Assembly (NCBI GenBank): GCA_029564765.1
Contig: JAKQPK010000013.1
Coordinates: 28,216 to 92,215 of the forward strand
Direction of reading: 5' to 3'
DNA length: 64,000 bases
DNA from: Candidatus Omnitrophota bacterium
Lineage (GTDB): Bacteria; Omnitrophota; Gorgyraeia; Zapsychrales; Aceulaceae
The notes under the pieces were generated by a model. The model saw only the letters and a list, made by a program, of their open reading frames with translations. It made no database searches and had not been told where the DNA came from. Numbering within the stretch: the first letter of the stretch is position 1; the number at the start of each line of letters is the position of its first letter. Below, one piece after another: positions 41,796 to 54,185 of this stretch. The translations under genes were made by a program, and so were the position numbers.

Positions 41796-42173
41796 ATGGA
41801 ACATAGAACTAAAGGACAGGTCGAGGCGCTGATCAGCGAAGCGATCATCAAGTTTGAGAAAGAGTATATGGGCCGAGGACCGGTAGAGACCAAGGCTTAT
41901 ATCATCAAAGACATGGTCTTTATTCGACTCAAAGGTGTCCTGACCCCTGCGGAAGAGCAACTTGCCAAGAGCCCGGAAGGATCAGACTTGATCAAGCGTA
42001 CAAGAATGCAGCTTTTAGAGCATGGGCGTGTTTTGTTAGCGAACATGATCTCTTCGATCACTAATTGCCAAGTGCAGAGTCTGCATACGGATATCAGCAC
42101 AAAGACCGGCGAGCGCGTCATTGTCTTTACCCTTGATATGAATTTGGAGGAGATGCTCCCTGAAAAAGATTGA
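41796..42173 (+). CDS. MpsC/DUF2294-family small protein
   Basis: KGQVEALISEAIIKFEKEYMGRGPVETKAYIIKDMVFIRLKGVLTPAEEQL is the conserved DUF2294 core. Paralogue at 43276..43632. Confidence 0.6.
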   Translation: MEHRTKGQVEALISEAIIKFEKEYMGRGPVETKAYIIKDMVFIRLKGVLTPAEEQLAKSPEGSDLIKRTRMQLLEHGRVLLANMISSITNCQVQSLHTDISTKTGERVIVFTLDMNLEEMLPEKD

Positions 42174-42371
42174 CGAAATTATTTTTTAAGTTAAAATAAT
42201 TTTGTTATTAAGATATTGGAAGACTGTCAGCGAGAGCCTTGATCACGTTGGGGCTGTTGCAGAGTAAGCCAACAAAAGTTTGCGTTTCTTTTTAAAAGAG
42301 CGAAAAACATTTGTTGGCTTTTTTGTTGGCAGTTGAACATCATGGCGATCATCAAAGAACGGAGGTGTTGG

Positions 42372-43286
42372 ATGGATCAGGGGTCTTTACGTATGACGCG
42401 TTTTACTGATGTTGAATTCTTCAAAAGAGGCAAGGTCCGGGATGTTTATGACCTCAAGGATAAGCTGTTGGTGGTTTCTACGGATCGTATTTCTTGTTTT
42501 GATGTGGTTTTGCCGACATCGATTCCTCACAAAGGAGAGATCCTGACAAAGCTTTCGCTTTTTTGGTTTAATTTTACAAGGGACATTATCGATAATCATT
42601 TTATTTCCGCTAATGTAGAGGAGTATCCTGAAGTTTTACAACAGTATCATGATGTTTTAAGCGGCCGCTCCATGCTCGTTAAGAAAGCGCAAGCCATTCC
42701 TGTTGAGTGCGTTGTTCGAGGATATCTCTCTGGCTCTGGATGGAAAGAATATCGAGCAAAAAGATCTATCTGCGGCATTCCCTTGCCCTCAGGATTGCGG
42801 GAGTCGGATAAGCTTCCGGAGCCCATTTTTACTCCATCAACAAAAGAGGATGTCGGTCATGATGTCAACGTTTCTCAAGAGTTTGTTGAGAGCGAGCTCG
42901 GCAAGGAGATGGCGGAGCAGCTTAAAAAGACAAGCTTGGCAATATACCAGAAAGCAAGCCAATACGCGGAATCCAAAGGGATCATTATTGCTGATACCAA
43001 ATTCGAATTCGGTCTTTATGATGGCAAGATGATCTTGATCGATGAGGTTTTGACTCCGGACTCGTCCCGTTTTTGGCCTCGAAAGACCTACGCTCCCGGC
43101 GGGTCCCAGGCCAGTTTTGACAAACAGCTTGTGAGGGATTACCTCGAAACATTGGATTGGGATAAAACACCGCCCGGCCCTGAGTTACCAGAGCATATTG
43201 TCCGTCAGACCAGCGAAAAATATTCAGAAGCTTTAACCTTGCTCAGCGGGCAATCATTTTGCCCAGGGTCATGCCATGGCTGTTAG
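42372..43286 (+). CDS. purC: Phosphoribosylaminoimidazole-succinocarboxamide (SAICAR) synthase
   Basis: RBS GGAGGTG plus ATG at 42372. RDVYDL...[15 protein letters not shown]...[10 protein letters not shown] motifs. Short Cys-rich tail CPGSCHGC. Confidence 0.9.
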
Positions 43287-43632
43287 TTCAGTATCCGCGA
43301 TCGAGGAGCTGGTGAATCAAAAGCTGCATGATCTTCTTGAACAGTTTCTGGGAGAGGACGCGCGATCGGTTACTAGCAAGATCGTTGACGATGTGATCAT
43401 CGTAAGGTTCCAGAATGTTCTTGCCTTGGGGGAGAAACATTTAAGTGAAGATCCTCAGGGCGGAAGGCTGATCCAAGACCTTAAGATGAAGTTAATCGAA
43501 AAAGCAAGGCCAGCCCTAGAGCGCTGTATCGAGGATATCACGGGCGCGCGCGTAATGGACTTGCATTCAAGTTTTAATTTGGCTACGCGAGAACGGCTAG
43601 AGATCTTTGTGCTGGACCAAAATTTAACATAA
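43276..43632 (+). CDS. MpsC/DUF2294-family small protein (second paralogue)
   Basis: [39 protein letters not shown] parallels 41796..42173. Confidence 0.55.
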
Positions 43633-44428: not shown

Positions 44429-44460
44429 ATTAGCTGATCCGTTTTCTCAAGGTTTTGAAT

Positions 44461-47400
44461 ATGCAAGCTAATTTAGATTATATTTTTTTCTTATACGGAT
44501 TATCTTTTCTTATTCTAGCGGTTATTTCATTTCGCTTTTTTAGAGAGAAGATCAAGACTTCCTTGCAATGGAAATGGATGGCTCTTTTTGGCGTTCTTCA
44601 TGGTGTGCATGAGTGGGCTAATCTAATAGCTGTTTCTTTCCCTCTGTGCCGCCTTGGCAATGCGTTTTCTTTTCTTTTGCTGACAGCTTCCTTTATCTGT
44701 CTTTTAGAATTCGGTCGCAGGTCATTTAAAAGAAACACAGGACAGCATTTAGTTGGATCCTGGATATATGGACCTCTTGTTCTTTTGTGTGTTGTGTGCG
44801 GATTGCACGGAACAACAGGATGGGAGGTCGGCGTTCGTTATTCTTTGGGTTTTTTTGGTAGCCTATTGACAGCGCTAGCGTTCTTTAGGAGATCAGAGAA
44901 CACGCCTTTTCACCATAAGAAGCGTTTGCGGACTATTGGATGCTTGTTCGTCGTGTATGGGGTCGCAGTCGGCCTTGTTGTGCCTTATCAGGATTTTTTC
45001 CCTGCTTCGATTATTAATCAAGGCTCTTTCTTTCAGATGATAGGCGTTGCCCCTGAAGCCGTGCGAGCTTCCTGCGCCATTGTGATCGCGCTATTGTGCT
45101 TTTCGATCATCACGAGCCTGGAGATCTTATGGGCTGAAGAAGAAAAACAAAAGACCATTAAGCGTATCTTTATTTTTCAGCTTGCTGTTTTGTTTCTAGT
45201 TATTGTTGGAGGATGGATCTTTTTGCAGAGGGCCTCAGAGGGCGAGGTGGCACGCAAATCCCAGCATCTTTTAGACAGAACGCATTATCTTTCACAGGCG
45301 ATCAATATTGATCATTTAAGAAAGTTATCAGGAACGAGAGCGGACCTTGATCTTGCGGTTTTTGAGCGTGTTTGGGATTTTCTGAAAGAGATCCCAAAAG
45401 TTTTCCCGGAGCAACGTTTTGCTTATTTTCTGATCAAGAAAGACCAACAGCTAGTTTTTTTAGCCGATTCAGAGCCTTTGGGCTCGCAAGATAGATCCTT
45501 GCCGGGTGATGTCTTTGATGGCGCACCGCAAGCTTTTTATGATGTTTTTACGACTCGCCAAAGCTCCATCGTCGGTCCTTATAGCGATGAGTGGGGAACA
45601 TGGATCAGCTCGGCGTTGCCTATTCTTGACCCGGCAACAGGGCAGATCACGGCTCTTTTTTGCCTTGATCATAATGCCAAGGACTGGGCGCGAGATCTTG
45701 CAAGGCACCGTCTTTCGATCATCTTAGGGATCCTATGCCTGTCTTTTTTTATTGTTCTTAGCTTTTACATTTTCGGCAGAGAAAAACCCTTATCTAGCAA
45801 GATCTTTTATGTTGAGACCTTTTACGGGGCAGGCTTCTCTTTTGCGGTTGTCATCTTCATTTTTTTTGTTACCCTGCAAATAAGCCGTCAGCAGCGCGAT
45901 TTTCAATTTCAAAGGATCGCTGTTGTTTCTCAGGAGATCTTTGCAAGCACATTTCGTGAGGCGCGTCATTACTTAGAAACCCTAACAAAATATTTTGAAT
46001 GCTCATCCGACGTAACGTCCGAAGAATTTCATCGTTATGCGTCTGGGCTGGTTCAGGATCATGCGGGGATACAGGCCTTTGCCTGGATCCCTATTGTCAG
46101 GTCTGAAGAACTAAGCGGATATGAGGCAAAAGCAAGAGAGCGGGGAGAGAAAGATTTTTTTGTTTTTGAGAGAACACAAGCAGGTGGCAAGATCCCTGTT
46201 GGAAAAAGAGAAGAATATTTTCCTCTGTATTATCTTGAACCTTTATTTGATAACAAAGCTGCGTTAGGTTTTGATGCGTATTCAGAGCCTATACGTCGAC
46301 AGACCTTAGAGAGGGCGCGCAAGAAAGATTTGCGGTTTGCCACGGGCGTGATCGATTTTGTTGTTGACCAGAAAGGACGAAAGCAAGGGATCCTTGTTTA
46401 TCAGCCTGTGTACGTGCCCAAGCAAGGATTAGATGGTGAAATAAAAATAGAAAAGGAGTTTAAGGGGTTCTTGATGATGGCTCTGCGTCCCCAGTCACTT
46501 TTGGAAACAAGGTATTTTGTAAAACTTCTTTCTGATCGGCAGCTTACGCAGTCTTATGTCATCGATCTTGGTGATCCTTCGGGGATAACAGCCATGGCAA
46601 GCTATCCTGAAAAAAAAGGCCTTTCTTCGGCCGAGGCGCAAGACTTGTTGCGTAAAAAGCCCAACGAGCTTAAAGAGATTATGGTCTTTTCTTTTTTTGG
46701 CCGTTCATATGCGGTCGTCGTCACTCCAGAGAAGATATTTTTTCAGAAATATGCAAAGCCCTTGCCTTGGTTCGCTCTTTTCGCAGGGTTTTTATTTTCC
46801 GGCCTTTTAGCGCTTTTGATCTACACTTTGCAGAATCAGCGCAAGCGTGCCGAAGACATTGTGATCCACAGGACCGCGGAGCTTTTTGAAAGCGAGCAGC
46901 GATTTCGCAGCATCTTTGATAATATGGCCGATGGCGTGGCGATCTATCGGGCTGTGGATGATGGCAAAGATTTTGTGTTCGTTGATATCAATCGCGCAGG
47001 GCAGAAGTCTTCAAAGGTGGATCGCAGTGATGTTGTTGGCCGGCGCATAACCGATGTCTTTCCTTTTGTTTCGGACATGGGACTTCTTGCGGTCATGAGA
47101 CAGGTTTATCGGACCGGAACATCACAACAGCATCCACAAACCCTTTATAAGGATGAACGTCTCCAGCAGTGGGTAGAAAACTTTGTGTGCAAACTTTCTT
47201 CGGATCTTATTGCTGCTGTTTATACAGATCTCACGGAGCTTAAGCAGCAAGAATGCAAGGCCTTGGAAGCTCATCAAAGACTGCAGGCGATCATGGATTC
47301 AGCAAAGCGTGTCTCTATTATTTCTGTCAACCTAGATGGCGTTATTCAAACCTTTAATAAAGGCGCTGAAGAAATGATGGGCTATTCCGCTAAAGAAATG

Positions 47401-48504
47401 ATAGGCAGGAAAGCTATCCCGAGCCTTCATGTTGAGTCAGAAATTTTGTCCTATGCTCAAGAGCTATCCCAGGAGTTCGGCTATCCCGTGGATCCCTCTG
47501 AAGCGTTCAACGTCCGCATTAAGAGAGGCCAAAAAGAAGAGCGTGAATGGACATGTGTTCGTAAGGATGGAACGCGGTTAATAGTAAATCTTGTAATTAC
47601 GCCTCTTAAAATGGCGGATGGACAAATAGCAGGGTATCTGGGGACGGCAACGGATGTGACTGAAAGCAAGAAGGCTCGGGAAGAGCTGGCTGAGGCCAAC
47701 CACAGCTTAAGAGAGAACGAAAAACTTTTACGCCGGCTTTTGGTCGACTTGGAAGAAAGAAATGAACAGCTGAAAAAAACACAAGCTCAGCTTGTGCAAT
47801 CAGAAAAGATGGTCGCTGTCGGACAGTTGTCCGCTGGGCTGGCCCACGAGATCAAGAATCCTTTGGCGATCATGTTGTTGGCTGTGGAGTCTCTGGAAAA
47901 GAAGACAGACATGTTCAGCGAAGAGATCCAGAAGAAATTCGCAATGATCAGAGACTCTGTCCATCGCATGAACAAGATCATTAAAGGATTATTGAGTTTC
48001 TCACATATATCTGAGTCCGCTTTTAGTCGAGTTTCTGTCAATCATGTTGTCAGCGCTGCAGTCGCGTTGGTGCAGAACACGGCAAAGATCAACAATATTG
48101 CATTAAGGGTTCATCTTTGTCAGGATCAGCAGATCATGGCTGATACCTTGATGCTTGAACAGGTTTTTGTGAACATTCTCAACAACGCGATAGATGCTGT
48201 ACAGGGTTCAGGTGAAATTTTTATATCGTCATGGACACAAGATGACGACACCGGAAAACCTCAAAAGCTATTCATTGAGTTTCGAGATACAGGCCCTGGT
48301 ATCCCCCCGCAGGCGATTAAGAACATTTTTAATCCTTTTTTTACGACAAAGGAAACGGGAAAGGGGACAGGCTTAGGGTTAAGCTTGGCATTTTCCACGA
48401 TCGAAAAGCATAAGGGCAAAATAACAGCCTCCAATTACGCTCATGGTAGAGGAGCTGTGTTCTTGATCGAATTACCTGTCTTGGCAGCCAAGAAAGATGC
48501 TTAA
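44461..48504 (+). CDS. Multi-domain hybrid-type sensor histidine kinase (N-terminal 7-8 TM, CHASE-like periplasmic domain, PAS repeats, HisKA, HATPase_c)
   Basis: CHASE-like block ...LYYLEPLFDNKAALGFDAYSEPIRRQTLERARKK.... PAS regions, H-box HEIKNPLAIM and G-boxes DTGPGI...GTGLGLSLA. 1349 aa by the track. Confidence 0.85.
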   Translation: MQANLDYIFFLYGLSFLILAVISFRFFREKIKTSLQWKWMALFGVLHGVHEWANLIAVSFPLCRLGNAFSFLLLTASFICLLEFGRRSFKRNTGQHLVGSWIYGPLVLLCVVCGLHGTTGWEVGVRYSLGFFGSLLTALAFFRRSENTPFHHKKRLRTIGCLFVVYGVAVGLVVPYQDFFPASIINQGSFFQMIGVAPEAVRASCAIVIALLCFSIITSLEILWAEEEKQKTIKRIFIFQLAVLFLVIVGGWIFLQRASEGEVARKSQHLLDRTHYLSQAINIDHLRKLSGTRADLDLAVFERVWDFLKEIPKVFPEQRFAYFLIKKDQQLVFLADSEPLGSQDRSLPGDVFDGAPQAFYDVFTTRQSSIVGPYSDEWGTWISSALPILDPATGQITALFCLDHNAKDWARDLARHRLSIILGILCLSFFIVLSFYIFGREKPLSSKIFYVETFYGAGFSFAVVIFIFFVTLQISRQQRDFQFQRIAVVSQEIFASTFREARHYLETLTKYFECSSDVTSEEFHRYASGLVQDHAGIQAFAWIPIVRSEELSGYEAKARERGEKDFFVFERTQAGGKIPVGKREEYFPLYYLEPLFDNKAALGFDAYSEPIRRQTLERARKKDLRFATGVIDFVVDQKGRKQGILVYQPVYVPKQGLDGEIKIEKEFKGFLMMALRPQSLLETRYFVKLLSDRQLTQSYVIDLGDPSGITAMASYPEKKGLSSAEAQDLLRKKPNELKEIMVFSFFGRSYAVVVTPEKIFFQKYAKPLPWFALFAGFLFSGLLALLIYTLQNQRKRAEDIVIHRTAELFESEQRFRSIFDNMADGVAIYRAVDDGKDFVFVDINRAGQKSSKVDRSDVVGRRITDVFPFVSDMGLLAVMRQVYRTGTSQQHPQTLYKDERLQQWVENFVCKLSSDLIAAVYTDLTELKQQECKALEAHQRLQAIMDSAKRVSIISVNLDGVIQTFNKGAEEMMGYSAKEMIGRKAIPSLHVESEILSYAQELSQEFGYPVDPSEAFNVRIKRGQKEEREWTCVRKDGTRLIVNLVITPLKMADGQIAGYLGTATDVTESKKAREELAEANHSLRENEKLLRRLLVDLEERNEQLKKTQAQLVQSEKMVAVGQLSAGLAHEIKNPLAIMLLAVESLEKKTDMFSEEIQKKFAMIRDSVHRMNKIIKGLLSFSHISESAFSRVSVNHVVSAAVALVQNTAKINNIALRVHLCQDQQIMADTLMLEQVFVNILNNAIDAVQGSGEIFISSWTQDDDTGKPQKLFIEFRDTGPGIPPQAIKNIFNPFFTTKETGKGTGLGLSLAFSTIEKHKGKITASNYAHGRGAVFLIELPVLAAKKDA

Positions 48505-48518
48505 GCGGTCTTAAAGAT

Positions 48519-48890
48519 ATGGAACGTAAGAAAACGATCCTTTTTGTGGAAGATGAATCTGACCTGCGGATGCTGGTCGCGGAAGAACTTTCAGGCCTTG
48601 GCTATCATGTTATGGAGGCCGATGATGGAGAAGAGGCGATGGCCTGTTTTGAAAAGGTCATACCGGATCTTATCATTACGGATATCGTTATGCCCAAGAT
48701 GCACGGCGATGAGCTTGTTAGAGCTGTACGGGCTTTGGACCAAGGTAAGAAGATCCCTATCATTGTTGTAAGCGCCTACGCGCCTAAAGAAAAAGCCTTA
48801 AGTGGTTTTGAGGGTGTCTCGATCATCGAAAAGCCTTTCTCTGTGGACCAGCTTCTTTCTATGGTCCAAGATCTTCTTGCGGAAAAGTGA
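48519..48890 (+). CDS. Single-domain response regulator (CheY-like receiver)
   Basis: KTILFVEDESDLR...IITDIVMPKMHG...IIVVSAY receiver motifs. Directly downstream of the histidine kinase. Confidence 0.85.
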   Translation: MERKKTILFVEDESDLRMLVAEELSGLGYHVMEADDGEEAMACFEKVIPDLIITDIVMPKMHGDELVRAVRALDQGKKIPIIVVSAYAPKEKALSGFEGVSIIEKPFSVDQLLSMVQDLLAEK

Positions 48891-48987
48891 TCCTAGGTAT
48901 TCGGCCAAACCCAAGAACGAAGGGTGCTTGACAGGGTTTTCTTTTGTGTTAAATTATTGGCATATGCTATTAACTTAAGGAGCTCTA

Positions 48988-49287
48988 GTGTCTCGTCCTG
49001 TTAAACAACGATGCATCAGAAAAGATCCTGCATCTTATTATTTTAAGCCGCGGGGAATACCTCTAAAAGATCTCAAGGAAAACAACCTAACCTTAGATGA
49101 ATTAGAAGCGATACGCTTGGCTGATCTTGATCGTCAGTATCAACAACAGGCTGCTTGCAAGATGGGTGTTTCCAGGCAGACTTTTGGCAATATTATCAAG
49201 TCCGCTCACCACAAGATCGCAGATGCGCTTTTGCGAGGGAAAGCGCTCAAGATCAAGGGTGGATTTGTGAAAAAGGTGCGCATATGA
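48988..49287 (+). CDS. UPF0251/DUF134 family putative DNA-binding protein
   Basis: PRPVK-type N-terminus, YFKPRGIPLKDL and LTLDELEAIRLADLDRQYQQQAACKMGVSRQTFGNIIKSAHHKIADALLRGKAL match the DUF134 family (sigma70 region-4-like HTH). Confidence 0.7.
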   Translation: MSRPVKQRCIRKDPASYYFKPRGIPLKDLKENNLTLDELEAIRLADLDRQYQQQAACKMGVSRQTFGNIIKSAHHKIADALLRGKALKIKGGFVKKVRI

Positions 49288-49874
49288 AAGATTGGTTCAG
49301 CATAGAAAAGAGAAAGCAAAGATCGTTGAAAGATCATGGATATGATATTGTGCGCTCAAGAGATTTTATTCTCCAGAAAGCCAAGATCGGCAAAGGGTCG
49401 CTTTTAGAGATCGGCACAGGCAAGGGTCATTTTACGCTGGCGTTAGCAAGAAGAAATTTTTTGTTTACTGCTATCGATCTTGATGCCAGTGCGCAAAAAG
49501 TAGCTCGTCAGTATCTTCGTCGTTATGGGTTGGAAAATATGGTTGCGATCCGCAAGATGAATGCTGAAAAATTGAGTTTTTCCAATCAAAGCTTTGATAT
49601 TGTCATTTCGGTTAATTTTATGCATCACGCGCAAAAACCTTTTCTTTGTTTGCGGGAAATGGTGCGCGTGGCAAAAAAGAAGATCGTGATAGCAGATATC
49701 AACCAAAAAGGCGCACAAGCCCTAGACCGTTTTCATGCGAATGAAGGCCGTCAACACCCTCGTTCACATGTTTCGCTTAAAGAGGTGCGTTCGTTCTTTC
49801 AAAAAAGCGGATTTACCGTTAAGACCTATAAAGGGTATTGTCAGACAGTGCTTGTCGCGAGGAAAGGAGAATAA
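49284..49874 (+). CDS. Class I SAM-dependent methyltransferase
   Basis: LLEIGTGKGHFTL (motif I), TAIDLD (motif II) and SFDIVISVNFMHH (post II/III). ATG at 49284 overlaps the DUF134 stop. Confidence 0.75.
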   Translation: MKDWFSIEKRKQRSLKDHGYDIVRSRDFILQKAKIGKGSLLEIGTGKGHFTLALARRNFLFTAIDLDASAQKVARQYLRRYGLENMVAIRKMNAEKLSFSNQSFDIVISVNFMHHAQKPFLCLREMVRVAKKKIVIADINQKGAQALDRFHANEGRQHPRSHVSLKEVRSFFQKSGFTVKTYKGYCQTVLVARKGE

Positions 49875-49876
49875 AG

Positions 49877-50242
49877 ATGAAGGTGTGTATCCCAACGGAA
49901 ACAAATCAAGGCATAGCAGCGGATGTTTACGGACATTTTGGTAGCGCCCCGTACTTTATGATCTATGATACGGAATCTTGCACGACAGAGATAGTCGTCA
50001 ATACAAATCAGCATCATTCACATGGGATGTGTCAGCCAATGACAGTTTTGATGGATAAAAAGATCGATGCGGTGGTGTGCGCTGGCATGGGTGGCAGAGC
50101 TGTTCAAAGGCTCAACGAGGGTGGAGTAAAAGCCTATCGAGCTATCCAAGGAACCGTGCAATCAGTCGTTGACCAGTTTCTCAAAGGCGGGCTTGAGGAG
50201 ATCACGGTAGCAAATGCCTGTATCCAACATGATTGCCATTGA
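49877..50242 (+). CDS. NifX/NafY/NifB-C-terminal-like dinitrogenase FeMo-cofactor-binding (Nitro_FeMo-Co) domain protein
   Basis: MKVCIPTETNQG...VYGHFGSAPYFMIYD...HGMCQPM...IDAVVCAGMGGRAVQRL...GVKAY is the characteristic layout. RBS AGGAAAGGAGA. Confidence 0.7.
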   Translation: MKVCIPTETNQGIAADVYGHFGSAPYFMIYDTESCTTEIVVNTNQHHSHGMCQPMTVLMDKKIDAVVCAGMGGRAVQRLNEGGVKAYRAIQGTVQSVVDQFLKGGLEEITVANACIQHDCH

Positions 50243-50253
50243 TTAAAAAGAAC

Positions 50254-50829
50254 ATGCTCACTTGTCTTGCTCTATGCTTTCATCACAAGCGTTTTATCAG
50301 CCGGCGAAAGCGATTCTGTTTTCAAAGTGGCTTGAATGTCCTGATCGGCCCTAATGGATCAGGAAAGAGTTCGCTTTTAAAAGCGATCCATCGATGTAAA
50401 GATTGCGACAGGCAAGAGGGCGCGCCGACGACTTACCATTATTTTAACAGCGAAGAGATGAATCCTCATAAGACGCACCGATATTTTAAAGGATTCGCTG
50501 GGTCTGTGATCCGCGCCCGTTCTCTTTTTTCCTCTCATGGAGAAACCTTGCGCGATGTATTAAAGTCGTATCGGCCTCAGAGAGGTGATTGTTTCTTGTT
50601 GGATGAGCCGGAGGTAGGACATGACCTATCGTGGATCCTTAAGATCCGCAGAGGATTAGATGAGCTTGCCAGGTCCGGCTGTCAGGTGATCGTGGCATCC
50701 CATCATCCGGTCTTTTGGGCAAAGGCCAGTGTTATAGAATTGAAACGTGGTTATTTGCAGAGATCGTGCAAGCTGATGCATCGCGTGACTGCTTGCCAAC
50801 TGCCAAGAAAGCAAAAGACAGCAAAATGA
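50254..50829 (+). CDS. Minimal ABC/RecF-like ATPase (Walker A, degenerate signature, Walker B)
   Basis: LNVLIGPNGSGKSSLL (Walker A), SSHGETLRDVL (LSGGQ-like) and CFLLDEPEVGHD (Walker B). Start uncertain (TTG 50233 by the track, ATG 50254). Confidence 0.6.
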   Translation: MLTCLALCFHHKRFISRRKRFCFQSGLNVLIGPNGSGKSSLLKAIHRCKDCDRQEGAPTTYHYFNSEEMNPHKTHRYFKGFAGSVIRARSLFSSHGETLRDVLKSYRPQRGDCFLLDEPEVGHDLSWILKIRRGLDELARSGCQVIVASHHPVFWAKASVIELKRGYLQRSCKLMHRVTACQLPRKQKTAK

Positions 50830-51539
50830 AGATCACGCTTTTAGCGCAAGGGTCAACTTTACAACAGCGGGCTAAGGGCCACTGGGGGATCGCTTTTTTG
50901 ATCGGCCAGGAGATCTTGTTCGACGCGTTCGGGGATGCGCATGCCTTGGAGCAGGCTATACAGAGTAAAAAGGTTGATCTTTCATGCCTAAAGCATATCG
51001 TTATTTCTCATGATCATTGGGATCACACAAACGGTTTGTGGTCCATTTTGCCGCGGTGCCCTCAAGCATCGGTTTATGTCTGCCGTCGAGTTTCATCACG
51101 CCTTAAGGAAAGCATACGCTCTTTTAGGGTGAAGCTTGTTGAGGTGCAGAAGCCTGTGAGGATCGTCCGCGGTGTTCATACTGCTGGCCAAATAAAGGGG
51201 CTGATCAAAGATCAGATTATTTATGAGCAATCATTGGTCATTTCATCGCTTCAAGGATTGACGCTTTTGACAGGCTGTTCTCATCCAGGGATCTTAAGTG
51301 TTGTCAACCATGTCCATGAACATTTTCATAAGATGCCTTGTCGGGTCATTGGTGGATTACATTTAAAAGACACGCCCGCGCAAGAGATCAAGAATATTGC
51401 CCATCAGCTAAAAAAAGATGGTGTCAAAACGATCATTCCTCTGCATTGCACCGGTAAGCAGGCCGTAAGGATCTTCAAGAGAGTTTTTAAGAAAGAATGT
51501 TGCGCTTGGCCTGCTGGAAAGAAAGCAATACAGTCTTGA
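50826..51539 (+). CDS. MBL-fold metallo-hydrolase
   Basis: HIVISHDHWDHTNG (HxHxDH motif) plus downstream His/Asp ligands. ATG at 50826 overlaps the previous stop. Confidence 0.7.
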   Translation: MKITLLAQGSTLQQRAKGHWGIAFLIGQEILFDAFGDAHALEQAIQSKKVDLSCLKHIVISHDHWDHTNGLWSILPRCPQASVYVCRRVSSRLKESIRSFRVKLVEVQKPVRIVRGVHTAGQIKGLIKDQIIYEQSLVISSLQGLTLLTGCSHPGILSVVNHVHEHFHKMPCRVIGGLHLKDTPAQEIKNIAHQLKKDGVKTIIPLHCTGKQAVRIFKRVFKKECCAWPAGKKAIQS

Positions 51540-51606
51540 TCAGGTTTTGTGCGGAGAGAATTCTATATAGACTCACGAAAAGAAACCAAGTATAATATCG
51601 GCGATC

Positions 51607-52422
51607 ATGATGGACGTTTTTCATTATCCCACACATCCTATTATGCAGGCGTTAGGCGCTGGCGTTTTTACTTGGGGGCTTACGGCCTTAGGGGCTGCTT
51701 TTATTTTTGTTACCCAGAAATTCAGTCAGAAAGTTTTTGACGCGATGCTGGGTTTTGCCGCGGGCGTGATGATCGCGGCGAGTTTCTGGTCCTTGTTGGC
51801 CCCGGCAATCGCGATGGCGCAAGATAACGGCCAGATCGCATGGCTGCCGGCGGCGTTAGGATTTTTCTTAGGCGCTTTATTCTTGCGGTTGATTGATATG
51901 ATCCTTCCGCATTTGCACTTAGGTTTTTCTTCATCGGAATCAGAAGGCATTAAGACGTCATGGCAGCGCAGCATTCTTCTTGTGCTCGCGATCACATTGC
52001 ATAATATTCCGGAAGGATTAGCGGTTGGCGTGGCTATTGGGGCTGCCGCGTCCGGCTTCCCTGAGGCTACAGTCGCGGCCGCGATCGCGTTAACGGCAGG
52101 GATCGGTATTCAGAATATTCCTGAAGGATTTGCTGTATCCGTGTCCTTGCGTCGGGAAGGCCTGTCAAAAATGAAAAGTTTTTGGTATGGCCAGCTTTCA
52201 GCGGTCGTTGAACCATTATTTGCTGTGATCGGAGCTGCTGCTGTTCTGTGGGCAAAACCTTTGTTACCGTATGCCTTGGGTTTCGCGGCTGGCGCGATGA
52301 TCTTTGTTGTGGTAGAAGAAGTCGTTCCCGAGTCACAGCGTAACGGCCATACGGATCTGGCGACGGCGGGCACCATCATTGGCTTTATCATTATGATGAT
52401 CTTGGATGTCGCGTTTGGGTAA
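51607..52422 (+). CDS. zupT: ZIP-family divalent metal (zinc) transporter ZupT-like
   Basis: Duplicated HNIPEGLAVGVAI and QNIPEGFAVSVSL motifs; 8 TM helices. Confidence 0.85.
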   Translation: MMDVFHYPTHPIMQALGAGVFTWGLTALGAAFIFVTQKFSQKVFDAMLGFAAGVMIAASFWSLLAPAIAMAQDNGQIAWLPAALGFFLGALFLRLIDMILPHLHLGFSSSESEGIKTSWQRSILLVLAITLHNIPEGLAVGVAIGAAASGFPEATVAAAIALTAGIGIQNIPEGFAVSVSLRREGLSKMKSFWYGQLSAVVEPLFAVIGAAAVLWAKPLLPYALGFAAGAMIFVVVEEVVPESQRNGHTDLATAGTIIGFIIMMILDVAFG

Positions 52423-52455
52423 GGATAATGTCAACTTATTAAAAGGAGGTTAAAG

Positions 52456-52965
52456 ATGGGAACAAGAGGAAGACAGATCATCGAGGCGTTAGGGATCAAG
52501 ATCCCTGAATTGATCAAGATGTTAAACAAGGCGTATGCGGATGAGTGGTTAGCTTATTATCAATATTGGGCAGGGGCGAAGGTCGCGGTTGGTATGCCTA
52601 AAGAAGCTGTTGTTGCTGAGCTTACACAGCATGCCGCTGATGAGCTTAGACACGCGGGAATGGTTGCTGATCGGATCATTCAGCTGGGAGGAACGATCCT
52701 TCTGGAGCCCAAAGATTGGTATACGCATACTAACTGTGGATACGACAAGCCGGAAAATCCGGACGTCCGCGTGTTGTTAGAGCAGAATATTAAAGGTGAG
52801 CAATGCGCGATCAGCGTGTATAAAAAGATCATTGACTATACCAAAGACAAAGATCCTGTCACTTATGATATCGCGCTTCAGATCATGTCGGATGAGATCG
52901 AGCATGAAGAAGATCTAGAAGCTATTCGAGACGATATTAAGGTAATGTTTTCAAAAAGCAAATAA
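52456..52965 (+). CDS. Ferritin-like diiron-carboxylate protein (Dps/bacterioferritin superfamily-like)
   Basis: Paired E...ExxH motifs (ADELRHAG; DEIEHEEDL) in a four-helix-bundle-sized 169-aa protein. Confidence 0.55.
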   Translation: MGTRGRQIIEALGIKIPELIKMLNKAYADEWLAYYQYWAGAKVAVGMPKEAVVAELTQHAADELRHAGMVADRIIQLGGTILLEPKDWYTHTNCGYDKPENPDVRVLLEQNIKGEQCAISVYKKIIDYTKDKDPVTYDIALQIMSDEIEHEEDLEAIRDDIKVMFSKSK

Positions 52966-52971
52966 TATGCA

Positions 52972-53010
52972 AGGGCGCTGCTGCGCGGTGTTTTGACGCA
53001 GCAGCGCCCT
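52972..53010 (+). terminator. Strong hairpin after the ferritin-like gene (no clear U tract)
   Basis: AGGGCGCUGCUGCG...CGCAGCAGCGCCCU 14-bp stem; CACAAC follows rather than Us. Confidence 0.4.
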
Positions 53011-53081
53011 CACAACTATCATGAGGTCATGACCTTTAACCCTTTTCTTAAAAGGGCACCCAGGCCTCCCCAGAAAAGGTC

Positions 53082-54185
53082 ATGAATATCCTGATCCAGT
53101 TTAAAAATAATCCGCTTTTTTTTACTCATCCTCACGCACTGATCGTCTGTTGTAGGCCCGCAGACATTGAAGATGCTTTTGAGAAAATGGAATATTGGCT
53201 TTCTAAAGGATTTTATGTTGCCGGTTTTGTCTCTTATGAGGCTGGATATTGTCTGGAAAAATGTTTAGTGTCAAAAGAGGATTATGATTTTCCTTTGATA
53301 TGTGTGGGAGCGTATCACGCGCCTGAGCCTTCACGTCTTTCGACCTGCAAGAAAGATTTTATGTTGCGCAACGCCCGTTTGAGCTGTTCTTTTCGAGATT
53401 ACGCTCAGCATATTCAGCGCATCCGCGAATACATTCAAAAAGGAGATGTCTATCAGATCACTTACTGCTTGAAGCTTTTTTGCGATATCAGCGGCAGCGT
53501 AAACAGCTTTTATGGGCATTTGTTGCAAGAGCATCCAGTCCCTTACGCGGCGTACCTTGAGCATGATCCTTGGAAGATCTTGTCGTTCTCTCCTGAGCGA
53601 TTTATCAGAAAAAAGGGGAGCCGCATCCTAGCGGAACCTATGAAAGGAACGTGGCCTAGAGGAAGCAACTTTTTTTCCGATGTTCTCGCGCGTTTTCATC
53701 TGAAATACGACATAAAAAATAGGGCTGAGAACGTGATGATCGCGGATCTTCTGCGTAACGACCTCGGACGTATCGCAAGCCATATCCGGGCGCCAAAACT
53801 GTTCACGGTCGCCAGATATAACACTCTTTTTCAGATGACCTCCACTGTGACAGGCCGCGTGAACCCTCAAAAAACAATACGCGATATTTTCTCAGCCCTT
53901 TTTCCTTCTGGCTCTGTCACGGGAGCGCCTAAGATCCGGGCGATGCAGATCATTCAGGGCCTTGAACCCTTTGAGCGCAAGATCTATACAGGCGCTATCG
54001 GCTACATCACGCCGAATAGAGATTGTTATTTTAATATTCCCATTCGAACGATCTTGATCGAGAACAGCAAGGCAGAGATGGGTATTGGCGGAGGGATCGT
54101 TTGGGATTCTACGGCTGAAGGTGAATGGAATGAAGGGATGTTAAAAGCGCGTTTTTTGATGAAGCATGTTAGAAAAGATCTTTAA
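53082..54185 (+). CDS. Chorismate-binding enzyme, aminodeoxychorismate synthase component I (PabB)-like, short form
   Basis: C-terminal chorismate-binding motifs FPSGSVTGAPKIRAMQII, ERKIYTGAIGYI and GGGIVWDS. Confidence 0.75.
   Translation: MNILIQFKNNPLFFTHPHALIVCCRPADIEDAFEKMEYWLSKGFYVAGFVSYEAGYCLEKCLVSKEDYDFPLICVGAYHAPEPSRLSTCKKDFMLRNARLSCSFRDYAQHIQRIREYIQKGDVYQITYCLKLFCDISGSVNSFYGHLLQEHPVPYAAYLEHDPWKILSFSPERFIRKKGSRILAEPMKGTWPRGSNFFSDVLARFHLKYDIKNRAENVMIADLLRNDLGRIASHIRAPKLFTVARYNTLFQMTSTVTGRVNPQKTIRDIFSALFPSGSVTGAPKIRAMQIIQGLEPFERKIYTGAIGYITPNRDCYFNIPIRTILIENSKAEMGIGGGIVWDSTAEGEWNEGMLKARFLMKHVRKDL

Follow-up and report, generated by a model that had tools for sequence, protein, structure and literature searches.

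A tightly packed DUF134, NifX-like and mini-ABC ATPase gene array as a candidate metal- or cluster-handling operon of a Candidatus Omnitrophota bacterium

Results

Organization of the gene array

The window analysed here is a 64-kb stretch of DNA from the metagenome-assembled genome of a Candidatus Omnitrophota bacterium (64,000 nucleotides (nt) of contig JAKQPK010000013.1, assembly GCA_029564765.1), and the subject of this work is an array of seven genes within it, whose features are collected in Table 1. Five co-directional genes lie behind one sigma-70-type promoter, with junctions of -4, +2, +11 and -4 nt. They encode a predicted DUF134 regulator, a class I methyltransferase dependent on S-adenosylmethionine (SAM), here called MT, a NifX-like protein of 121 amino acids (aa), here called NifX121, a small ATPase of the ATP-binding cassette (ABC) type, and a protein with the metallo-beta-lactamase (MBL) fold. 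A ZIP importer gene and a ferritin-like gene follow, and the array is closed by a stem-loop with a minimum free energy of -33.4 kcal/mol (z = -5.55 against shuffled sequence). Contig DAOPPE010000002.1 (GCA_035358335.1) carries identical proteins in an identical gene order, its ATPase being labelled Candidatus Omnitrophota bacterium.

Table 1. Features of the gene array and their positions in the window
Feature	Position	Strand	Details
Sigma-70-type promoter of the operon	48928..48955	+	TTGACA, 16-nt spacer, TAAATT; TG upstream of the -10
20-bp palindromic candidate operator TTATTGGCATATGCTATTAA, consensus TTATTAGCATATGCTAATAA	48954..48973	.	Shares 2 nt with the end of the -10; overlaps the expected transcription start
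DUF134 gene	48988-49287	+	GTG start; AAGGAG ribosome-binding site 5'
SAM methyltransferase (MT) gene	49284-49874	+	196 aa
NifX-like gene (NifX121)	49877-50242	+	121 aa
Mini-ABC ATPase gene	50254-50829	+	191 aa
MBL-fold gene	50826-51539	+	237 aa
MBL-ZIP spacer element	51562..51596	+	TAGACT, 17-nt spacer, TATAAT (consensus scan); 10-bp palindrome TCTATATAGA over the -35, read from the sequence itself
ZIP gene	51607-52422	+	271 aa; 67-nt spacer after MBL
Ferritin-like (DPSL) gene	52456-52965	+	169 aa; 33-nt spacer after ZIP
Strong stem-loop, terminator-like, without T tract	52972..53010	+	Closes the gene array

A preliminary description of this DNA had named the seven genes, and the motifs quoted in it (a Walker A motif, SSHGET, LLDEPEVGHD and HIVISHDHWDH) are all present. 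Two of the start/stop overlaps that it listed were found as described: the ATG of the MT gene shares an ATGA with the TGA of the DUF134 gene at 49284-49287, and the ATPase and MBL genes overlap in the same way at 50826-50829. The NifX121 gene also starts close behind the MT gene, 2 nt past the TAA at 49872-49874. By contrast, of the two starts offered for the ATPase gene, 50233 (a TTG, which gives an overlap) and 50254, the first was not sustained, since the gene starts at the ATG at 50254, whose Met1 is invariant across 24 aligned members of the family; an 11-nt gap therefore separates it from the NifX121 gene, and the protein has 191 aa and not 190. Start/stop overlaps are ordinary in bacterial operons and unremarkable alone; what goes beyond chance is that the same gene families recur together in other genomes, and that an operator is conserved.

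The Pfam scores in bits (gathering cut-off in brackets) were 78.3 (27) for DUF134, 68 (21) for Methyltransf_11 in the MT, 80.8 (26.3) for Nitro_FeMo-Co in NifX121, 57 (27) for AAA_21 in the ATPase, 38 (27) for Lactamase_B_2 in the MBL protein, 91.6 (35.1) for Zip and 90 (24.5) for Ferritin.

The predicted DUF134 regulator and a candidate operator at its promoter

The operon promoter matches the consensus at 10 of 12 positions in a consensus scan. Two further loci on long contigs, L106 and L107, also have a NifX121 gene directly after DUF134 (73% and 58% identical to that of the window, respectively), and they carry the same -35 (TTGACAGG) and a TATATT -10 at the same distance 5' of DUF134 as in the window. 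The three promoters have in common TTGACAGG and a TA[AT]ATT -10, with the palindrome TTATTAGCATATGCTAATAA immediately after, and the sequences of the spacers between -35 and -10 are unrelated. The palindrome occupies the same promoter position in all three, with no mismatch in L106, one in L107 and two in the window. A single site was found in the 64-kb window, where chance would give 0.02, and no further site with up to three mismatches was detected in 1.37 Mb of loci. A repeat search returned a 30-nt imperfect palindrome around the candidate operator, at 48949-48978. The simplest reading is autoregulation, in which a dimeric helix-turn-helix (HTH) protein would sit on a palindrome of 20 base pairs (bp) that covers the transcription start; DUF134 is probably the protein that binds at 48954..48973 and autoregulates its operon. 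The earlier suggestion that the module is under its own small regulator is in line with this conserved palindrome at the DUF134 promoter.

The match of the protein to Pfam PF02001 covers residues 2-94 of 99, and the family is large, with thousands of relatives, the closest orthologues being 65-78% identical. The HTH similar to region 4 of sigma-70 that had been noticed before was recovered as a weak match to a profile of the sigma70-ECF type (E = 0.008, model positions 117-164) and also in an AlphaFold2 (AF2) model (pLDDT 70) with helices at 36-47, 52-59 and 63-82. In Foldseek searches with this model the top matches were region 4 of sigma-E (2h27), SigD4, SigL and GerE, and the DNA-binding domain of DeoR also matched. 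The superpositions gave root mean square deviations of 0.6-1.2 Å over about 50 residues, with weak E-values (0.03-0.3) that reflect the small size of the domain. The model thus supports a fold like that of sigma-70 region 4, in which the three-helix HTH core of DUF134 superposes on region 4 of sigma-E, SigD and SigL and on GerE. HTH domains of the GerE/LuxR type bind DNA as dimers at palindromes of roughly 20 bp, the size of the candidate operator, and DUF134 carries no receiver or ligand-binding domain.

The family has its own conserved N-terminal segment, PRP...FKPxGxP. In the orthologues the N-terminus has the consensus MPRPCRCRRIRCxP, with a CxCx4C triad whose C12 is kept by 90% or more of the close orthologues. 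The window protein begins with MSRPVKQRCIRKDP, with V5, Q7, K12 and one Cys at position 9, and so it is devoid of the Cys triad. In relatives of about 157 aa (P0307, P0314 and P0326) a C-terminal CxxC...CxxC zinc ribbon was observed, with precomputed PF27353 for most of them, and this extension is a hint, from sequence, at metal sensing or binding by the family.

Other arrangements were observed 5' of DUF134 genes of a lineage rich in G+C (L078:4500-4560, L087:7670-7725, L091:2760-2815 and L092:12530-12585), where TTGAC[AG], an 18-nt spacer and TATG[CT]T are followed by just 6-7 nt before the ATG, so that transcription from them probably yields leaderless mRNAs. The -10 regions of the four promoters hold GTATATG, a sequence similar to the core GCATATGC of the window palindrome. 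The motif GG[CT]ATATG[CT]T near distant DUF134 genes was dropped as evidence, as its 9 sites in 1.24 Mb correspond to the chance frequency. At L046:940-990, an AT-rich near-palindrome beginning GTATTATCATATGCGAATAT, with four mismatches to the DUF134 operator, lies 5' of a gene of the ArsR family (HTH_5) and 6 kb from a copy of the ATPase that has no partners; it is probably a different operator. A literature search for DUF134, UPF0251 and COG1342 returned incidental mentions and no functional study.

NifX121 and its pairing with DUF134

The entries of the Protein Data Bank (PDB) closest to NifX121 are TM1290 (1rdu, 4e-16), TM1816, MTH1175 and the orange protein, ORP (2wfb, 1e-4), its PDB relatives being 1rdu, 1t3v, 1eo1, 2yx6 and 2wfb. 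A search for the family gave 504 matches, and the best 120 listed have 121 aa with few exceptions. C4, H20, H47, H49, C52, C115, H118 and C120 are invariant in the alignment and H121 is nearly so, with a mean column identity of 81%. The members are labelled by their sources as metagenome-assembled genomes (MAGs) of Omnitrophota, Planctomycetota and Elusimicrobia. The conserved Cys and His residues make NifX121 a candidate carrier or sensor of a metal or a metal cluster. Three 121-aa orthologues (P0394, P0447 and P0456) are called 'diguanylate cyclase' in public records, an evident annotation error.

Domain searches reassigned neither the NifX-like nor the DUF134 call of the preliminary description. 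NifX121 shares the Pfam domain and about the same length with the family of NifX, NafY and the C-terminal part of NifB, and with TM1290, TM1816, MTH1175 and PH0822, the similarity to 1t3v/1o13 being around 1e-12. Unlike these relatives, it is tied to DUF134 and to metal importers. Opposite C52 of NifX121, neither TM1290 nor TM1816 shows a Cys in the printed alignments, and both end before the C115-x2-H118-x-C120 motif. Identity as NifX or NafY proper, the carrier of the iron-molybdenum cofactor, was rejected: the annotated parts, which lie at about 11-61 kb of the window, showed no nif genes, and the score on the NifB model was 21 bits against a cut-off of 344.

DUF134 and NifX genes adjoin each other in L085, L092, L106 and L107, and P0502 is a natural in-frame fusion, DUF134::NifX121. 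NifX121 genes also adjoin metal importers of three families, namely ZIP in the window, MFS_MOT1 in L107, and ZnuA/ABC-3 in L108. These data could also be explained if DUF134 and NifX121 were a two-protein sensor and regulator, with NifX121 as the ligand-binding and DUF134 as the DNA-binding part, and the genes downstream were variable cargo that does not cooperate. This explanation, which partly overlaps with the model proposed below, seems to us rather unlikely, though it deserves serious attention. In agreement with it, what accompanies the pair differs from locus to locus: DUF134-NifX121 is followed by a cupin and small kinase fragments in L106 and by MOT1, a rubrerythrin-like gene and an extracytoplasmic function (ECF) sigma factor in L107, and ZnuA with the ABC-3 permease lies directly upstream of NifX121 in L108. 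The fusion and the conserved operator fit it equally, as does the loss of the Cys triad by the window DUF134, which would leave sensing to its partner. L108 speaks against it, as its NifX121 gene has no DUF134 gene adjacent.

Two observations on these loci are added. In L108 (4831-7366, in a MAG labelled Planctomycetes) no gene for a ZnuC ABC ATPase was called in the 14-kb locus. In L107 (1-8800, an Omnitrophota contig) the DUF134-NifX121-MOT1-rubrerythrin unit lies beside a mobile or defence-like stretch with an integrase fragment, DUF3800, a Gp49/HTH toxin-antitoxin pair, DUF2971 and NERD.

The mini-ABC ATPase

As judged from its motifs, the fourth protein is an ABC-type ATPase that keeps all the catalytic motifs of this class. 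It has a Walker A motif, LNVLIGPNGSGKSS (GPNGSGKS), an E67xMNPH72 loop, SSHGE in the place of LSGGQ, a Walker B and D-loop LLDEPEVGHD and an H-loop ASHHP, and in the family alignment GPNGSGKS, SSHGE, LLDEPE, GHD and ASHH are invariant or nearly so. Its AF2 model (pLDDT 82) matched many ABC nucleotide-binding domains in Foldseek with a probability of 1.0 and TM values around 0.5. The invariant E67-x-MNPH72 follows strand 61-65, at the position of the Q-loop, in a loop of low model confidence. The helical subdomain appears reduced, as the protein falls some 60 aa short of the usual length of nucleotide-binding domains. The residues C8, H11, C48 and C51 (CxxH and CxxC) are specific to a subfamily, with all four present in 9 sequences (the core subfamily) and none in 10 (the wider one). 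Their joint presence or absence suggests that they form one site, a candidate metal site.

The PDB profile matches were generic ABC proteins only. No NCBIfam cut-off was reached, and neither Pfam nor NCBIfam has a dedicated model. A word-indexed search gave 192 matches to the family, mostly labelled Omnitrophota, with one labelled Deltaproteobacteria. At E<=1e-30 the family comprises 24 clusters at 50% identity, and these belong to a longer tail of mini-ABC proteins, about 1,450 in number, of which the ones listed have 180-200 aa for the most part. Only unnamed metagenomic proteins were found among the distant relatives.

The earlier label of a minimal ABC/RecF-like ATPase was right in its first half. 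The identity with RecF, SMC or Rad50 was rejected, as the match to these proteins is limited to the region of Walker A (residues 11-48), the SMC_N score of 35 bits is below the cut-off of 40, and the ATPase is one contiguous 191-aa domain and not a protein of half-site architecture. SufC, SmsC (MJ0035, PDB 9h78), ZnuC and AztA have the same ABC fold and motif order, with weak profile matches to AztA (38 bits), ZnuC (3e-9), MJ0035 (3e-9) and SufC (1e-6), a likeness no greater than that to any ABC ATPase. As in the case of SufC, no transmembrane partner is encoded beside the window ATPase: no permease gene is adjacent, and in L102 it is a ZIP gene that overlaps the ATPase stop. With respect to these four proteins, the window ATPase is about 60 residues shorter, the ExMNPH loop would stand in for the Q-loop glutamine, and there are the subfamily-specific CxxH and CxxC motifs; a partner like SufB or SufD is not present.

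The methyltransferase and the comparison with defence systems

The MT, encoded between DUF134 and NifX121, reached the generic class I SAM domains Methyltransf_11, Methyltransf_25 and Methyltransf_31 of Pfam, and none of 55 NCBIfam models at its cut-off, the best being UbiG (49 against 103) and DVU_1556 (47 against 155). It belongs to a subtype, 'MTa', that neighbours NifX genes in ORP-like clusters, and is 34-40% identical to the NifX-adjacent methyltransferases of L052, L057, L058, L062, L064 and L101, with the common motifs GYDI..ER and H...EG..H. The sequence has just two Cys, so that the Cys triad typical of ArsM methyltransferases is absent.

A methyltransferase, an ATPase of the OLD/ABC type and an MBL nuclease could together form an anti-phage defence module like MADS or PARIS/Gabija, and some scores point that way: in PADLOC, the MT matched mad2 (61 bits) and the ATPase matched AriA, mad3, HEC-02A and GajA (35-56 bits), NCBIfam gave a MAD3 match at 5e-8, and the MBL protein of L101 has a weak Apyc1 match in Pfam. 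We consider this explanation very improbable, because the best-matched stretches listed for the ATPase are Walker A or Walker B, the MT match consists of 124 residues that coincide with the Pfam domain, and the PADLOC models are 2-3 times longer than the window proteins. Moreover, PADLOC gave no match for MBL, NifX121 or DUF134 and no other component of MADS, PARIS or Gabija. The partners of these genes are metal-cluster proteins, metal importers and ferritins, and the context is one of housekeeping genes, syntenic across species and not an island. Membership in MADS or OLD/ABC defence was thus rejected, the PADLOC matches being partial and to much longer models.

The Tflp-like MBL protein

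In 12 homologues of the MBL protein, H62, H64, D66, H67, C151, H153, H179, H207 and C208 are invariant, C151 being the Cys of motif 4 and C208 following the His of motif 5 (H207). Its sequence matches in the PDB are 7dck (6e-27), TM1679 (3h3e, 2e-23) and Tflp (2p4z, 3e-20), with GCSH and HCTG conserved, and by these relatives the protein falls in a COG1237-like group. Tflp is reported to hold a di-iron centre or, under reducing conditions, an Fe-S centre, and to have Cys at motif 4 and after the His of motif 5 (bioRxiv 10.1101/2020.04.16.045138). The window protein has the same fold as this protein of Caldanaerobacter (Thermoanaerobacter) tengcongensis, together with HxHxDH, GC[AS]H and HC[TS]G, differing in its length (237 aa against 284 in Tflp) and in its ATPase/ZIP/DPSL context, which is not described for Tflp. 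The invariant Cys residues at motifs 4 and 5, as in Tflp, make an iron or redox protein more likely than a plain hydrolase. The fold and the HxHxDH motif of the 'MBL hydrolase' previously named are thus retained, and its plain hydrolase function is not favoured.

The pabB gene, 117 nt past the ferritin gene and itself followed by a convergent uppP gene, raises another possibility, namely a pterin or folate link in which the COG1237-type MBL protein would act with pabB as a non-canonical enzyme similar to dihydropteroate synthase. This adjacency and the placing of the protein in the COG1237-like group, to which an enzyme of the M. jannaschii MJ0301 type presumably also belongs, are in its favour. 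It is nevertheless hardly probable: pabB lies behind the strong hairpin, its adjacency is confined to this lineage, nine other MBL loci have no pab or fol neighbour, and the invariant extra Cys ligands match those of the iron protein Tflp.

The ZIP importer and the DPS-like protein

The sixth gene had been called zupT, of which the ZIP family stood and the equivalog did not: the protein scored 133.9 bits on the NCBIfam ZupT equivalog (NF003243), whose cut-off is 252, and is a ZupT-like member of the ZIP family and not a certified ZupT. It is 75% identical to the ZIP of L101. For the ferritin-like protein, the PDB matches were a bacterioferritin-related protein of Bacteroides fragilis (2vzb, 8e-39) and then archaeal DPS and DPS-like proteins (7stw, 8w1d and 2clb); on the NCBIfam archaeal DPS equivalog it scored 96 bits, short of the cut-off of 250. 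It has a conserved Cys pair, C94 and C117, both aligned to Cys in 2vzb, and by these sequence matches it is a member of the DPS-like (DPSL) subgroup. It shares the ferritin fold and the Cys pair with the DPSL proteins 2vzb, 2clb and 7stw, and differs from them by its place directly behind a ZIP gene.

Recurrence of the gene families in other loci

Other loci of the ATPase were obtained by scanning metagenome contigs with the family alignment trimmed to the MNPH...SSHGE segment, which gave 50 loci, and their neighbourhoods were mapped by tblastn with the proteins of three Pfam-annotated loci (L101, L102 and L047). Counts refer to 21 non-redundant, well-flanked ATPase loci with at least 8 kb of flank each, and to a partner set made up of NifX, MinD/ferredoxin, Mrp, radical SAM, DUF89, MBL, DUF134 and DUF5320. 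At least two of these partners were found in 14 of the 21 loci, and at least three in 11. By family, an MT is present in 13 loci, DUF89/ARMT1 in 11, a Tflp-like MBL in 10, NifX-like genes, paired MinD/ferredoxin genes and a 258-aa radical SAM protein in 8 each, and Mrp in 7.

Two loci illustrate typical arrangements. The order in L101 is FUR-DUF89-MBL-x-DUF5320-NifX-NifX-MT-two MinD/ferredoxin genes-Mrp-radical SAM-OsmC-MT-ATPase, and in L092 it is DUF134-NifX-MinD/ferredoxin-MinD/ferredoxin-MBL-Mrp-NifX-DsrE-DUF5320-radical SAM...MT-ATPase-DUF89-x-DUF134. The terminal DUF134 of L091 and of L092 is followed by unrelated genes, for a two-component system, AbiEi and a thioesterase. The Mrp of L101 scored 370 bits on the MrpORP model, and this score together with the content in partners indicates that these clusters are ORP-like in the sense of the orange-protein complex of Desulfovibrio. 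Partners of the MinD/ferredoxin and MrpORP kinds are present in L052, L057, L058, L085, L092 and L101. A literature search for COG1149, COG1433, COG1237, DUF5320 and Nitro_FeMo-Co found nothing on this neighbourhood. The combination of MT, ATPase and MBL, which the preliminary description had not recognised, is therefore a recurrent one, which in Omnitrophota and in further lineages without cultivated members makes up the accessory part of ORP-like clusters.

The second half of the array has counterparts of its own. The ATPase and MBL genes are adjacent in L047, L055, L057, L058 and L104, and linkages of the ATPase with MBL, with ZIP or, at some distance, with DPSL extend over L047, L052, L055, L057, L058, L102 and L104. 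The whole ATPase-MBL-ZIP-DPSL block is kept in L104, ATPase-ZIP-DsrE-ferritin is found in L102, and L052 has the order DUF89-ATPase-DsrE-MBL-HypA-[ZIP remnant]-DPSL, with a DPSL protein 93% identical to that of the window and an ATPase just 66% identical. That ATPase, MBL, ZIP and DPSL are syntenic in lineages without NifX121, inside clusters of metal-cluster proteins, points to a shared function beyond co-regulation, and so weighs against the two-protein sensor with variable cargo.

The same data bear on another alternative, that genome streamlining has packed unrelated small genes together and that the overlaps are the product of compaction. The exact arrangement is confined to very close relatives, the surroundings are housekeeping genes (pabB, uppP, purC and a glutamate synthase/CPSase block), and some ATPase loci lack recognisable partners, which are points in favour of such a chance juxtaposition. 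It is very unlikely in view of the 14 of 21 loci, of very different G+C content, where the same families lie near each other, and of the fusion of DUF134 and NifX genes and the conserved operator, as well as of the junctions of the translational-coupling type seen elsewhere (ATPase/ZIP in L102 and MT/ATPase in L103).

Some further features of these clusters were recorded. In L052 (12020-12300) all that survives of a ZIP gene is a stretch of about 56 codons from its 3' end, with 70% identity to the ZIP of the window; it lies between the HypA-like and DPS-like genes with no intact open reading frame (ORF), and looks like a decaying pseudogene in an otherwise syntenic block. HypA genes lie within the clusters at L102:5252-6401, paired with a 243-aa ATPase of the ParA/MinD type, and at L052:11558-11974. 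Archaeal HypA and a HypB of the Mrp/MinD type form a nickel-insertion pair, which the pair of L102 resembles. Recurrent members without a Pfam or NCBIfam match are a 551-aa protein (L101:1957-3612), a protein of about 210 aa found in 8 of the 21 loci (L102:4558-5193 and L047:2108-2731) and, overlapping the start of the MT gene, an ORF of 62 aa (L101:4816-5004).

Surroundings of the array in the window

A 1349-aa sensor histidine kinase (CHASE, multi-PAS, HisKA and HATPase domains), followed 14 nt later by a 123-aa response regulator made up of a receiver only, occupies 44455-48890 and ends 97 nt 5' of DUF134. A receiver without output beside an HTH protein without sensor could be a functional pairing. 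Farther upstream lie housekeeping genes of nitrogen and nucleotide metabolism (glutamate synthase, CPSase, purF and pyrG). At 41796-43632, purC (SAICAR synthase) is flanked by two genes with MpsC domains (PF10057); just upstream, a FIST-domain gene runs on the other strand. At 31520-35009 there are two neighbouring large ORFs (543 and 552 aa) with no Pfam match on record and a tRNA gene between them (33181-33262). Downstream of the array, the stops of pabB and the convergent uppP (BacA) overlap by 4 nt at 54182-54185. An Rfam scan of the whole window gave two tRNAs and nothing else, and a riboswitch or other RNA element at the locus was rejected, as 48400-53200 had no Rfam match at E<=1.

Discussion

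The data presented here are consistent with an operon that regulates itself and serves the trafficking of either a transition metal or a metal-sulfur cluster, its host being a strict anaerobe among the Candidatus Omnitrophota; we regard the case for this proposal as evenly poised. The handling of a transition metal or a cluster of the Fe-S type under reducing conditions is suggested by the nature of the parts, namely a carrier rich in His and Cys, an ATPase with a Cys/His site, an MBL protein of the iron type, an importer, and a DPSL protein that would buffer peroxide and iron. The neighbours that these families have elsewhere (FUR, HypA, rubrerythrin, OsmC and DsrE) point the same way. The metal- or metallocluster-handling module put forward in the preliminary description is thus supported, as its parts recur together. 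Two checks named at that stage as able to overturn it have been run and did not: the linkages of DUF134 with NifX and of the ATPase with MBL, ZIP and DPSL are conserved elsewhere, and the domain assignments of DUF134 and the NifX-like protein stayed as they were. We infer the co-transcription of the ZIP and ferritin genes with the first five, and likewise the identity of the metal, the substrates, the physical contacts and the role of the ATPase.

In the proposed mechanism, a DUF134 dimer with an HTH like those of sigma region 4 and GerE would bind the palindrome and gate transcription. NifX121 would bind a metal or a cluster of the Fe-S type through its four Cys and four His, acting as a carrier and possibly also as co-sensor of DUF134, a role that we set beside the loss of the Cys triad by the window DUF134. 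The mini-ABC ATPase would close as an ATP sandwich dimer and, with its CxxH/CxxC site, would drive the loading or the hand-over of the metal or cluster; such a role as an ATP-driven clamp or chaperone is drawn by analogy with SufC/SmsC, Mrp/NBP35 and the COG0523 proteins. The Tflp-like MBL protein would be an iron-containing redox partner or client, the ZIP protein would import a divalent metal (Fe2+ or Zn2+), and the DPS-like protein would buffer iron and peroxide.

The closest known system is the ORP complex. In Desulfovibrio vulgaris this comprises the MinD-ferredoxin ATPases Orp3 and Orp4, the NifX-like Orp5 and Orp8, and Orp9 (MrpORP). ORP proteins bind metal, are matured by Mrp and are made only at low redox potential, and the physiological role of ORP is unknown. 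Like the window operon, the complex is specific to anaerobes and built on small proteins with the Nitro_FeMo-Co domain. The families of the window have as partners elsewhere two MinD/ferredoxin genes, an Mrp that scores as MrpORP and two or three NifX-like genes, and NifX121 itself matches the C-terminal NifX-like domain of MrpORP. The differences lie in regulation, which depends on sigma-54 and OrpR in the ORP system and would depend here on a DUF134 HTH protein, a sigma-70-type promoter and a palindromic candidate operator, and in composition, as the five ORP-complex subunits listed include no mini-ABC ATPase, Tflp-like MBL, DUF89 or MT.

Several observations weigh against the proposed metal- or cluster-trafficking operon. 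No Orp3/4 MinD/ferredoxin, MrpORP, 258-aa radical SAM or DUF89 was detected in the 64-kb window by tblastn with the proteins of L101 and L102. The exact five-gene order was seen only in the near-identical genomes L001-L003, and none of the other ATPase loci has the NifX121 subtype, their NifX proteins being at most 36% identical to that of the window. Seven of the 21 well-flanked loci have fewer than two partners of the ORP type, with just an MT or an unnamed family nearby in three of them. The importers near NifX121 point to different metals (Zn/Fe, Mo and Zn/Mn), the MT is given no role in the mechanism, and the E67xMNPH72 loop of the ATPase is modelled with low confidence. The ZIP gene, finally, may be transcribed separately from its own promoter-like spacer, as the element at 51562..51596 is 100% identical in L104, whose ATPase is only 87% identical.

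The restricted gene order and the lack of NifX121 at the other ATPase loci indicate that the operon is a lineage-specific juxtaposition. As far as comparison of sequences can tell, what has been joined are two modules, DUF134-NifX121, which is tied to metal importers, and mini-ABC ATPase/MBL/ZIP/DPSL, which is tied to ORP-like clusters. By the same comparison the array is a pared-down assembly of parts that are embedded elsewhere in ORP-like clusters.

A more far-reaching interpretation, which we offer as speculative and think rather unlikely, is that the Cys/His mini-ABC ATPase represents a new class of metallochaperone or cluster-transfer ATPase in the ORP system, and that DUF134 and NifX121 form a split metal- or cluster-sensing switch acting on the palindrome. 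By analogy, such a class could be an ABC-fold counterpart of SufC, Mrp/NBP35 and COG0523, working with a Tflp-like iron protein and with DUF89 and MT partners, and the DUF134-NifX121 switch, occasionally fused, could couple metal import to the ATPase machinery.

The presence in anaerobes of uncharacterised NifX-like and DUF134 genes and of ORP-type clusters was already known. New are the mini-ABC ATPase family and the fixed partners that accompany it, a concrete candidate operator, and the NifX121 subfamily, which is associated with importers and in one case fused to DUF134. The neighbourhood of ORP, NifX-like and DUF134 genes is widespread in strict anaerobes and uncultivated phyla, where it has no assigned physiological function, and this locus provides testable handles on it: a defined candidate operator sequence for the DUF134 regulators, which have never been characterised, a tightly conserved NifX-like protein of 121 aa that has eight invariant Cys/His residues and travels with three importer families, and a family of small ABC-type ATPases that has a candidate metal site and lacks a model of its own in Pfam or NCBIfam. 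Should these proteins not move metals or clusters, they would still make up a sharply bounded group of conserved hypothetical families whose partners are clear. If they do move metals or clusters of the Fe-S type, the short list of ATP-driven metal-delivery systems would grow, and the operon would give a first functional foothold in the metal physiology of the Omnitrophota.

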